NCBI GenBank assembly: GCA_963834385.1
Contig: CAWIBO010000002.1
Location: 896,001 to 960,000 of the forward strand
Length of the DNA stretch: 64,000 nucleotides
Direction: 5' to 3'
Origin: an uncultured Verrucomicrobiae bacterium
GTDB lineage: Bacteria > Verrucomicrobiota > Verrucomicrobiia > Chthoniobacterales > UBA10450
In this document: positions 2,457 to 37,170 of the stretch, piece by piece
Numbering within the stretch: the first letter of the stretch is position 1
Layout: each line of letters starts with the position of its first letter
The notes under the pieces: generated by a model
Seen by the model: only the letters and a program-made list of their open reading frames with translations
Databases searched by the model: none
Told to the model about the DNA's origin: nothing
Program-made: the position numbers and the translations under genes

Positions 2457-2466
2457 GAGATGGGGA

Positions 2467-2722
2467 AGATCAAGATCAGGATTAAGAGCAAGAGCATGAA
2501 AAAGACGCGCGGATCTGCGCCTCCTCCTGCTGCATGCTCCTGATCTTGCTCCTGCTCCCGGTCGAAAACGCCGCGTTCTTCAGGACGCACTGTATTCGGG
2601 ATGCGAGAATTGCGGGCAATAGTGAGAGATCAAGATCAGGATTAAGAGCAAGAGCATGAAAAAGACGCGGGGTCCACCAAGCCTCCTCATCCTCCTGCTC
2701 ATGCTCCTGATCTTGATCCTGC
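2467..2722. repeat. Two hairpin units of 6-nt-period repeats (160-bp period)
   Basis: Perfect 43-bp direct repeat AGATCAAGATCAGGATTAAGAGCAAGAGCATGAAAAAGACGCG at 2467-2509 and 2627-2669. Each is followed by an imperfect inverted arm (...CATGCTCCTGATCTTG...). Confidence 0.9.
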
Positions 2723-2732
2723 TTCCAGGCCA

Positions 2733-3127
2733 ACGCCGATTTATCTCTTCGATCACGAACGACTCGAAGTTTACCAGACATCCGTTCGATTCTGCGGGTG
2801 GGTCGGCAAGTTGATTGAAACCCTCCCGAGAATCGCCGCGCGTGATCAGCTTGATCGCGCCTCCACCAGCATCCCGCTCAATATTGCAGAAGGAAACGGC
2901 AAGTTCTCGGCAGGCCGACCGGAGTCGATTCCTCGAGATGGCGCGGGGTTCGGCACTCGAGTGTGCCGCTTGCCTTGATGTCCTGGTCGCCCGCTGCGTC
3001 ATCCAACAGGAGAATATTTTCGGGGCCAGAAAGCGAGCTGGCCGCGATTGTACGAATGATCATGGGCCTCCTGAAGCGCTTTTCACCGCACGCCGAACGC
3101 CTGCGCGAGGACGAACCCGCCCCATGA
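2733..3127 (+). pseudogene. Four-helix-bundle protein (IVS-protein / Avd-like family); ACG in place of a start codon and two frameshifts (real decay or read errors)
   Basis: Manual translation: PIYLFDHERLEVYQ...ARDQLDRASTSIPLNIAEGNGKFS /+1/ ADRSRFLEMARGSALECAACLDVL /shift/ ELAAIVRMIMGLLKRF...TGA at 3125-3127. QLxRAxxSIxxNIAEG and ARGSxxE are family signatures. Confidence 0.85.
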
Positions 3128-3129
3128 AA

Positions 3130-3212
3130 GACAGGATTCACAGGATGATCAGGATTAAAAAACAGACTCCTCTCACCTCCTCCGCAATCCTGTCCATCCT
3201 GTTAATCCTGTC
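3130..3212. repeat. 27-bp inverted repeat of 9-nt-period units
   Basis: GACAGGATTCACAGGATGATCAGGATT (3130-3156) vs AATCCTGTCCATCCTGTTAATCCTGTC (3186-3212); 3 mismatches. Confidence 0.9.
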
Positions 3213-3223
3213 CTGAAACAACC

Positions 3224-4432
3224 ATGAACAAACTCACCCTGCGCGAGCTGGATGTGCGCGGAAAACGCGTCCTCGTCCGCGTCGATTTCAATGTCCCGGT
3301 CGAAGAGCACGGCGACCATGTCCATCTGACCGACGACACCCGCATCCGCGAATCGCTCCCCACCATCCGGCATCTACGCGAGCAGGGCGCGAGGACGATC
3401 CTGATGGCGCATTTCGGCCGGCCCAAGGGCCAGCCGGTGGAGAAATATTCGCTTCGGCCGGTCGGCCTGCATTTGCATGACCTGATCGATCATCCCGTTG
3501 CTTTCAGCCACGATTGCATCGGCGCCGACGCGGAGAAGATCGTGGCCGAGATGAAGGAGGGCGATGTCACCCTGCTCGAGAACGTCCGCTTTTACGCCGG
3601 GGAAGAGGCCAACGATCCGATGTTCGCCGAGTCGCTCGCGAAGCTGGGCGATCTTTACGTGAACGACGCCTTCGGCGCGGCCCACCGCGCACACGCTTCC
3701 ACCGCCGGGATCACGAAATTTGTCGGAAAAAGCGCCATGGGTTTTCTCATGGAGAAGGAATTGAAATATCTCAAGGGCGAGCTGGACCGGCCGGCCAAGC
3801 CGTTCCTCGTCATCATGGGCGGCTCGAAAGTCTCGGACAAAATCGGGGTGATCAAGGCCCTCCTGGAAAAGGCCGACACCATCCTGATCGGCGGCGCCAT
3901 GGCGAACACCTTTTTCAAGGCGCAGGGCATCCCGGTCGGCGCCAGCCGCGTGGAAGCGGATAAGACGGGCCTGGCGAACGAGCTGCTCGATCTCGCGAAG
4001 AAGAAGGGCGTTCGCTTTCTGTTGCCGGTGGACGTGATCCAGACACGCGAGATCAAGGCGGGCGCGAAGACGGAGAACACGAGCCGCCTCTCGGCCGAGA
4101 GCGGGATCGGGGAGGGCTGGCAGGCGGTCGATATCGGACGCGAGAGCGTGGCGCTGTTCGAGAAAGAGATCGCGCACGCCAAAACGATCCTGTGGAACGG
4201 GCCGGTCGGCATTTTTGAGATCCCGGAGTTTGCGCAGGGGACCAACGCGATCGCGCAGGCGCTTGCGCAAACGGACGCCACCACCATCATCGGCGGCGGC
4301 GATTCCGTGACCGCGGTGCACCAGGCCGGTCTGGCGGAGAAAATGACTTTCATTTCGACTGGGGGCGGCGCCTCGTTGGAATTGATCGAAGGCAAAGAGT
4401 TGCCGGGCGTGGCGGCGTTGACCGACAAATAA
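3224..4432 (+). CDS. pgk: Phosphoglycerate kinase
   Basis: RVDFNVP, NDAFGAAHRAHAS, IIGGGDS, STGGGASLE. Confidence 0.98.
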   Translation: MNKLTLRELDVRGKRVLVRVDFNVPVEEHGDHVHLTDDTRIRESLPTIRHLREQGARTILMAHFGRPKGQPVEKYSLRPVGLHLHDLIDHPVAFSHDCIGADAEKIVAEMKEGDVTLLENVRFYAGEEANDPMFAESLAKLGDLYVNDAFGAAHRAHASTAGITKFVGKSAMGFLMEKELKYLKGELDRPAKPFLVIMGGSKVSDKIGVIKALLEKADTILIGGAMANTFFKAQGIPVGASRVEADKTGLANELLDLAKKKGVRFLLPVDVIQTREIKAGAKTENTSRLSAESGIGEGWQAVDIGRESVALFEKEIAHAKTILWNGPVGIFEIPEFAQGTNAIAQALAQTDATTIIGGGDSVTAVHQAGLAEKMTFISTGGGASLELIEGKELPGVAALTDK

Positions 4433-14125: not shown

Positions 14126-14134
14126 GCGCAAAAC

Positions 14135-14520
14135 GAATCAGGAAAGCAGGAACCAAGGAATTTACCGCCCCTTGCTGGCGTTCCTGGCTTCCAAATTCCC
14201 TTCCCCTCTCCGCGACCTCCGCGCCCACCGCGTGAGGCTCCCCGGTTCCGCCAACCCCGGTAGGGCGCCCTACACCAAACGGAGAAGAATCAGGAAAGCA
14301 GGAACCCAGGAAAACTCACCGGTGGTCCCCTTCCTGCGTTCCTGGTTTCCAAATTCGCTCTTCTCCCTCCGCGACCTCAGCGTGAGGCTCGCCCGTTCCC
14401 CTAATCCCTGGAGCGCGTCCTACACTAAACCAAGAGGAATCCGGAAAGTGGGAAACCACCAAAACTCACCAGTCTTCCCCTTCCTGCGTTCCTGGTTTCC
14501 AAATTCGTTTCCCTCTGCCT
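14135..14520. repeat. ~2.5 tandem copies of a ~150-bp composite palindromic unit
   Basis: Units start with GAATC(A/C)GGAAAG at 14135, 14287 and 14437. Each contains TTCCTGG(C/T)TTCCAAATTC; the first two also contain CTCCGCGACCTC...GCGTGAGGCTC and CCTACAC. Confidence 0.9.
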
Positions 14521-33711: not shown

Positions 33712-33720
33712 GCGCCCCCC

Positions 33721-33750
33721 TTCTTCCTTCTTACTTCTTACTTCTTACCT
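33721..33750. repeat. 7-nt tandem repeat
   Basis: TTCTTCC TTCTTAC TTCTTAC TTCTTAC, intergenic. Confidence 0.7.
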
Positions 33751-33758
33751 TTGCCCCC

Positions 33759-36779: not shown

Positions 36780-37170
36780 AATTTGGAAGCCAGGAAATCC
36801 AGGAAATGGAAAAGAACTTTTGAATCAGGAAAGTAGGAACACAGGAAAGTGAGGAGAAGTGCTCTTGGACATTCGATCTCAAACCTTCCCGCTTTCTCCT
36901 GCTTTCTTGTTTTCCTGATTAATGAATTTGGAAACCAGGAATCCAGGAAGAGGAGAACAGAACTTGAATCAGGAAAGCAGGAACACAGGAAAAGGAAGAG
37001 AGACGCTCTTAAACGCTCGTCCCCAAACACCAGTCCCTCTCTTCTTCCTGCTTTCTTGTTTTCCTAATTCATTTTCCTGGCTTCCTGGTTTCCAAATTCA
37101 ATCCTTTCCTGCGTTCCTCCTTTCCTGATTCATCTTCATGGTTTCCAAATTAAATCCTTTTTCCTGATTC
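36780..37170. repeat. Nested palindromic array of CAGGAA/TTCCTG repeats
   Basis: Arm A (AATTTGGAARCCAGGAA..CCAGGAA) at 36780 and 36925; arm B (GAATCAGGAAAGYAGGAACACAGGAAA) at 36822 and 36966; reverse complements at ~36893, 37045, 37074, 37105, 37135 and 37160. Confidence 0.92.

Follow-up and report, generated by a model that had tools for sequence, protein, structure and literature searches.

Intervening-sequence-like cassettes with a four-helix-bundle gene at the gap-pgk junction, and a broken member of the class in a Verrucomicrobiae genome

The spacer between gap and pgk and its broken gene

The region described here is the spacer leading from gap to pgk, at 2457-3223 of the window (by which we mean the whole stretch of 64,000 nucleotides that was analysed), with tpiA coming after pgk. 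On its upstream side lies gap (GAPDH; 1455-2456, + strand), an ORF of 333 aa with orthologues at the same position in relatives that are 78-87% identical to it, and on its downstream side pgk (3224-4432, + strand), an ORF of 402 aa with orthologues in 138 of 150 other family genomes; these three host genes, which we take to be gap, pgk and tpiA from motifs on their ORFs, are all intact. A further gene at 681-1371 on the minus strand, presumably GDSL-esterase-like judging from its motif, is split by a frameshift near 890 that may be an assembly error.

Two hexamer hairpin units follow gap on the + strand: unit 1 at 2466-2558 (purine arm 2466-2499, pyrimidine arm 2515-2558), which duplicates the 5' module of the cassette in diverged form, and unit 2 at 2627-2723 (purine arm 2627-2659, pyrimidine arm 2682-2723), whose pyrimidine arm is the cognate 5' arm of the gene behind it and whose build is found again in two relatives, G018 and G130. 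The 160-bp period noticed in an earlier sequence-only reading was recovered as 46-nt copies that are 98% identical (2467-2512 and 2627-2672), the 5' module being duplicated in this spacer, and both hairpins fold better than all of 200 shuffles (z -3.1 for unit 1 and -4.7 for unit 2). The inverted repeat of 9-nt units proposed downstream of the gene is likewise present, with arms of 27 bp at 3130-3156 and 3186-3212 that are 89% complementary, start 3 nt past the TGA at 3125-3127 and also beat 200 of 200 shuffles (z -6.5); it forms a solo hairpin of the CAGGATT type (3130-3212, + strand). The same reading had the gene caged by these hairpins, a picture that has to be given up: the 5' and 3' hairpins belong to different repeat families and pair with each other at only 74% over 23 nt, and therefore the gene does not lie inside one stem. 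Nor is the 9-nt hairpin a part of the cassette, since it stands alone at the gap-pgk junction in at least nine genomes of five genera and is to be regarded as a separate element; further copies occur elsewhere in the genome to which the window belongs (G000), and in G185 an arm resembling the CAGGATT type stands beside a GxxExxY gene.

Between the hairpins lies a broken four-helix-bundle gene (2656-3127, + strand) of the FDHEK-type subfamily. Its family was confirmed by profile search, two of its ORF pieces matching PF05635 (E 3e-10 and 1e-4) and TIGR02436 (E 5e-9 and 1e-3): the N-terminal piece lies above the curated cut-offs (40.7 bits against 33.8 for Pfam, 36.3 against 24 for TIGR02436), the second piece lies below them and the third had no match. 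That the ORF is not intact had also been seen correctly, the gene being split over three frames: the first shift falls somewhere from 2656 to about 2735, and two others lie close to 2910 and 3025. No start codon is in frame with the gene, and the ATG at position 2656, inside the second purine arm, is itself out of frame; in G018 and G130, which carry copies of the same type, a start codon at the matching position is in frame. In the G130-type group, to which the window copy belongs, an extra purine arm stands in front and the start codon lies within that arm; the window gene and the gap-pgk gene of G130 are sisters (SH-aLRT 96), at 70-71% identity. It also ends short, the acidic tail and the cognate 3' hexamer arm of its relatives being absent, and with this arm missing there is no terminal stem round the ORF.

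It is unlikely that the frame defects of this copy are long-read assembly errors in a gene that is really intact. Candidate frameshifts do number at least 175 in the assembly, a minimum rate of 0.07 per kb, and the gene still matches 31 of 33 conserved columns, both of which would suit such errors; at 0.07-0.2 per kb, however, two or more indels within 0.47 kb have a probability of 0.0005-0.004, the missing tail and 3' arm are not explicable by indel errors, and the neighbours gap, pgk and tpiA are intact. Because the background frameshift rate is too low for defects so clustered, the window copy is likely a pseudogene in a mixed spacer, a composite relic in which the ORF would have broken and the cognate 3' arm been lost, with an unrelated 9-nt hairpin now in place. 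With three frame defects and one arm gone it is no candidate for the autonomous member that it had been suggested to be, and as a relic it adds little by itself.

The gap-pgk junction across the family

Among 150 family genomes examined, 138 have a pgk match and 43 of these carry the gene directly before pgk. The 139 loci examined yielded 136 spacers, which make the junction a natural experiment, a single site that is found filled, empty, half-deleted or replaced. An intact cassette consists of a pyrimidine arm, the gene and a purine arm, in about 480 bp. Full-length cassettes occupy 44 spacers (G000 included), and 30 are of 15 nt or less; of the remainder, 16 have REP-like hairpins, 9 have hairpins of 9-nt units and 6 hairpins of 8-nt units, 6 are internally deleted forms, 6 have a single hexamer arm, 2 are mixed and 17 could not be classed, these classes being approximate, as they were assigned by regular expressions that gave G135, G087 and probably G003 a wrong extra label. 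The unpublished genomes G002, G007, G014 and G151 contribute two REP-like and two empty spacers and a single tree row, and nothing reported here has them as its sole basis; all counts over relatives overstate independence, the genomes being related.

The idea of a discrete cassette of gene plus repeats between co-oriented genes is thus found realised at this site, without any transposase in the cassette, as had been stated, and the 30 empty sites show that it is not fixed family-wide. Occupancy is mixed in eight of the ten genera with at least four genomes and zero in the remaining two; at five loci from other families, gap adjoins pgk in four and a cassette is present in none. The junction also holds other small genes unrelated to the cassette in G163 (L103) and G029 (L038), and in G058 the site immediately behind tpiA (L198, G058:C5:228483-230630) holds a four-helix cassette that belongs to the nuoH-nuoI clade, 2.5 kb away from that genome's gap-pgk cassette, an arrangement that may stem from rearrangement or misassembly.

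Arm statistics were obtained from 40 same-site cassettes (G000, G008, G129, G090, which contains N, and G097, whose gap lies outside the locus, were left out). In 35 of the 40 the arms pair with z below -3, placing the ORF inside a terminal stem in these relatives. The stem begins at most 5 nt from the gap stop in 28/40 and ends at most 15 nt from the pgk start in 36/40, the 3' arm is in frame with the cassette ORF in 39/40, and the stop codon of that ORF falls between -8 and +16 nt of the pgk start in 36/40, overlap being commonest. An SD-like word precedes pgk in 29 of 40 carriers, as against 2 of 30 empty sites. Five of the six internal deletions retain an in-frame mini-ORF ending at the pgk start (p 0.018 under random frames), a result partly expected from microhomology between the gene start and the arm.

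This geometry suggests how the insert may be tolerated. The cassette would be co-transcribed with gap, and its arms would pair in the mRNA as a stem of about 30-35 bp hiding the ribosome-binding site of pgk; translation of the cassette ORF through the 3' arm would open this stem and pass ribosomes on to pgk, and with coupling restored in this way the insert would be nearly harmless. A translational-coupling model of this kind also suits the window copy, in which the ORF is broken and the 3' arm missing.

Site fidelity, exchange between hosts and the likeness to rRNA intervening sequences

The subfamily protein tree comprises 87 proteins and 128 columns and is unrooted (the window copy, the partial proteins of G114 and G044, and L174 were omitted), with site labels that were mostly set by eye and checked for representatives. 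On this tree the cassette proteins cluster by insertion site and not by genome: the gap-pgk label requires 2 changes against 29.3 when shuffled, and the nuoF-nuoG, nuoH-nuoI and beta-CASP-upstream copies form one clade each across genera, the livG-livF copies not being a single clade. Since two copies of genus g8 from another site nest within the gap-pgk clade, jumps between sites do happen but are rare, and insertion between co-transcribed genes, as the sequence-only reading envisaged it, does not amount to free movement, the lineages staying at one junction.

Conflict with the host genera was assessed in 40 of the 43 carrier genomes, G129 and those lacking gap or pgk coverage being omitted. 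In these genomes the pgk tree groups g8, g10 and g17 each as a clade (SH-aLRT 99). The cassette gene rejects genus monophyly in four of four AU tests (g8 0.0005, g10 0.0016, g17 0.003, g41 0.027), as compared with 1 of 12 for pgk blocks of equal length and 3 of 8 for gap blocks. G142 and G075 have Gap proteins that are 96% and Pgk proteins that are 94% identical but cassette proteins that are only 67% identical, with saturated synonymous sites; in G131 and G076, Pgk is 88% identical but the cassette protein 91%. Cassette synonymous sites are saturated at a pgk pS of 0.37-0.43 in three pairs (G142/G075, G149/G131 and G078/G156), and in other pairs the cassette pS is lower than that of pgk. As close hosts with distant alleles occur together with the reverse pattern, rate alone cannot explain both, and the cassette gene has likely been exchanged between genera at the same junction. 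The gene is under purifying selection like that on pgk, with dN/dS of 0.05-0.07 in the six unsaturated pairs of nine examined.

The DNA would most likely be exchanged by homologous recombination in gap and pgk. Correlations between flank and cassette gave no clear signal of co-conversion in the gap and pgk codons, which is compatible with old tracts: the partial correlation is -0.17 over the final 20 codons of gap, and over the opening codons of pgk it is +0.16 when 20 are taken (8 of 500 permutations) and +0.05 when 10 are taken (127 of 500). In g8 and g17, blocks of the gap genes themselves (e.g. L049, L056, L058, L060 and L077) reject genus monophyly with p 0.002-0.005, in a pattern unlike that of the cassette, which is why gap itself seems to have been exchanged between lineages.

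Among known elements the closest match is the intervening sequence (IVS) of 23S rRNA, as known from helix 45 of Coxiella burnetii and from Leptospira, in which, according to the available text of PMC4990558, a terminal stem of about 30 bp with short tandem repeats in the arm encloses a PF05635 ORF in its loop. The Coxiella IVS has a 28-bp terminal stem with tandem heptamers and an ORF in the loop, is excised by RNase III, is sporadic and was acquired horizontally (same text), and horizontal transfer of Leptospira IVSs is also cited there. One fixed site, sporadic presence, horizontal transfer and ORF decay are features that this account gives for IVSs, and the cassette is likewise sporadic, site-fixed, horizontally exchanged and subject to decay of its ORF. 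It differs in lying at a stop/start junction of protein genes and in a unit of 6 nt in place of the 7 nt of the IVS as described there; its 3' arm is translated and carries the SD-like word of the downstream gene, and cutting by RNase III, a gene for which is present in G000 but whose action on the cassette is only putative, would split an mRNA. No Rfam match was found in 56 loci scanned, and the cassette sits between gap and pgk, not in an rRNA gene.

Free-standing homing endonuclease genes are known for a fixed site, patchy presence, purifying selection, and decay followed by re-invasion. The distribution of the cassette fits this picture, but it has no nuclease domain and showed no clear flank co-conversion, and any drive is putative.

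The reading that we prefer, at a probability of about one half, is that the ~480-bp cassette is an IVS-like selfish element, faithful to its site, which decays and is replaced by allele exchange between lineages, and whose protein would bind its own repeat type and thereby favour its own cassette in cis. Drive is putative in this reading, and against it stand a protein with no known catalytic site and with RNA or DNA binding that is putative, flanks that do not follow the cassette, and livG-livF copies that are not one clade. The swaps could moreover be explained by passive recombination without any action of the protein, because gap blocks also reject genera in 3 of 8 tests.

Passive recombination is also what a host-useful post-transcriptional module would employ, an explanation that we consider possible but rather doubtful, in which the stem protects gap mRNA or gates pgk translation and the pentamer tunes it. 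Intergenic stems bring about segmental mRNA stabilisation, and if any hairpin can partly do the job, the unrelated REP-like, 9-nt and 8-nt families at the junction find a natural place; purifying selection equal to that on pgk and the exchange of gap itself across genera agree with this as well. Such a module does not sit easily, however, with 30 of 136 junctions empty in genera of mixed occupancy, nor with the presence in one genome of as many as nine genes of the family, whose repeat types differ and whose operons are unrelated, and a regulator acting in trans would need no site-bound lineages.

Related genes, repeats and folds

The genome of the window (G000; 2.9 Mb, 89.6% complete) has, by profile search, eight PF05635 loci and three PF13366 (GxxExxY) loci, as well as a ninth four-helix gene, broken, that was spotted by eye at C5:549205; the window subfamily is represented by one gene copy only. 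By eye, inverted arrays of short tandem repeats flank all 11 listed loci, and the unit differs from gene to gene. A family-wide link with short-period inverted repeats had been proposed and is upheld: a neutral finder run on these loci and on loci from the order gave arms of the same period on both sides in 22 of 32 IVP loci, and in 14 of 30 GxxExxY loci. More distant loci of the window subfamily have period-6 arms in 42 of 48 cases (control 0/36), among them loci in records labelled Planctomycetota, Bacteroidota, Lentisphaerales and Desulfococcaceae, and several of the loci have the opposite arm polarity; other four-helix subfamilies have units of 7 or 8 nt. The 55 periodic inverted-repeat pairs of G000 include none within a called gene and many without a gene in the loop.

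Several repeat arrays without a cognate gene were seen in passing. Hairpin clusters of 8-nt units of the CAGGAAA type, with no gene inside, lie at 14131-14510 of the window after an operon gene and at 36780-37140 between two genes for 2-oxoacid:ferredoxin oxidoreductase subunits, and a lone 7-nt arm at 33719-33751 lies between a cation-efflux gene and a CHAD gene. Elsewhere in G000, C2:249719-250494, C5:791753-792444 and C2:2543-3273 are intergenic mosaics of interleaved 6-, 7- and 8-nt arms with no cognate gene. At C2:395292-395803 an ORF of about 150 aa, which from its motifs we take to be RAYT/IS200-like, lies inside a palindrome pair. At the nuoF-nuoG junction, G000 has a frameshifted GxxExxY gene with 8-nt arms (L012, C3:254595-255064), and at least six relatives have a four-helix/hexamer cassette there.

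These neighbours raise the possibility of a non-autonomous passenger, moved by the GxxExxY PD-(D/E)XK nuclease or by a RAYT-like transposase and with the four-helix protein as an accessory, which we regard as improbable. The GxxExxY genes do have the same arm-gene-arm build and share a junction with the cassettes (nuoF-nuoG), PF05635 and PF13366 are concordant in 37 of 41 cases across the order (25 with both, 12 with neither, 2 + 2 with one), and the presumed RAYT-like ORF stands in a palindrome; but shared ecology or genome size could produce the co-occurrence, arm unit and length differ between the two families, and GxxExxY is present in 126 of 151 family genomes and has no match at E 1e-15 in the carriers G018, G024, G071 and G115 (two of which are 73-74% complete).

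Other element classes were considered and set aside. An insertion sequence or MITE does not agree with the missing transposase, the one subfamily gene copy in G000, the site-bound clades and the variable outer ends of the arms (target duplication at the cassette ends was judged by eye only). The REPIN-RAYT system was rejected as there is no HUH transposase, the ORF pieces matching PF05635-type families only. In the accounts available, REP elements share with the cassettes intergenic hairpins, solo copies and clusters, and a cognate gene for each repeat type, and REP-like hairpins occupy 16 of the 136 gap-pgk spacers; by the same accounts the cassette differs in arms that are tandem hexamer arrays and not short palindromes, and in lineages that are site-bound and exchanged between genera. 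Comparable repeats are the intergenic heptamers of Beggiatoaceae, cyanobacteria and Bacteroidetes, which form short tandem arrays just 5' of start codons and within operons and for which a repeat-binding regulator was proposed (PMC4679880, main text). The words "S23", "intervening", "pentamer" and "Avd" do not occur in that main text, which therefore makes no connection between the heptamers and the PF05635 family. A search for literature on "tandem inverted repeats" in Quinella found nothing, and no description of such cassettes outside rRNA or in protein-coding operons came from a search that covered subscription papers thinly; the window feature belongs, as a broken copy, to a widespread class of IVS-like cassettes for which that search gave no printed description.

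The window copy was represented in structural comparisons by the intact same-site protein of G009, modelled as a four-helix bundle (pLDDT 85.7). Its nearest counterparts are Xcc0516 (2GSC) and BT_0352 (2RLD) of the S23/IVP family, with HMM E values of 2e-21 and 8e-21 and a TM-score of 0.89 normalised by target, from which the window subfamily differs in an added acidic dipeptide tail encoded by the arm. Both of these are pentamers, and the cassette protein is predicted to be a pentamer like Xcc0516 and Avd. Five repeat units for five subunits may be one rule behind the arms, and constant stem length fits equally well: the 5' arm has five units in 23 of 40 same-site cassettes, and in a neutral count arms of 7- or 8-nt units have 4.4 units against 5.5 for hexamers, with a length of 31-35 nt in all three.

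The fold is also that of Avd (4DWL, 8UBE; TM-score 0.79-0.82 by target, with 0.82, an rmsd of 2.0 and 8% identity for 4DWL), the accessory protein of diversity-generating retroelements (DGRs). The available text of PMC10053308 describes Avd as homologous to PF05635, that of PMC3936711 places IVP genes inside cas loci as well, and according to the available part of a preprint (bioRxiv 10.1101/2023.10.23.563531) the DGR reverse transcriptase depends on Avd, which binds stem-loops of RNA. A DGR itself was excluded at this locus, which has no reverse transcriptase, template repeat or variable repeat, and G000 (at 89.6% completeness) has no PF00078 match.

It is highly improbable that the cassette is an RNA-level retro-element, whose stem would be cut from the mRNA, bound by the Avd-like protein and copied back by a reverse transcriptase in trans. 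In its favour one may cite, apart from Avd, the presence of RNase III and the fact that 10 of the 11 cassette genes in G000 are co-oriented with both neighbours (e.g. metK-ahcY and nuoF-nuoG), but co-orientation is no proof of retro-mobility because promoterless expression alone yields it. Only 12 of 151 family genomes have a PF00078 match, and among them are 4 of the 43 carriers and 7 of the 95 non-carriers (p 0.74). The stems show no strand bias of their G-U pairs either: the sense strand was the stabler of the two in 22 of 40 stems and in 20 of 39. The propagation at RNA level that had been suggested from the sequence thus finds no support in either co-occurrence or strand bias. Viral contigs contributed one weak relative among 24 candidate stretches.

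Returning to the IVS-like selfish element, a wider form of this reading, which we put forward tentatively and consider unlikely as a whole, would make the four-helix cassettes homing elements without nuclease or reverse transcriptase: an Avd-like pentamer would recognise the tandem repeats specific to its subfamily, with about five units in each arm, and drive the cassette into the empty allele of one operon junction, the cost being hidden by rebuilt translational coupling. The IVS would then be the particular case of insertion into rRNA, Avd would be a member that was domesticated, and such elements would have left many of the orphan intergenic repeats of 6-9 nt as footprints. The IVP/S23 family has been known for three decades with no function assigned, and short intergenic tandem repeats have no agreed origin. 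At the gap-pgk junction the protein of this family is seen to be under selection, to keep to a single repeat type and a single site, and to pass between genera, and the question of its function can now be put more directly: whether it binds its repeats, whether RNase III cleaves the stem, whether translation is coupled and whether alleles are converted.
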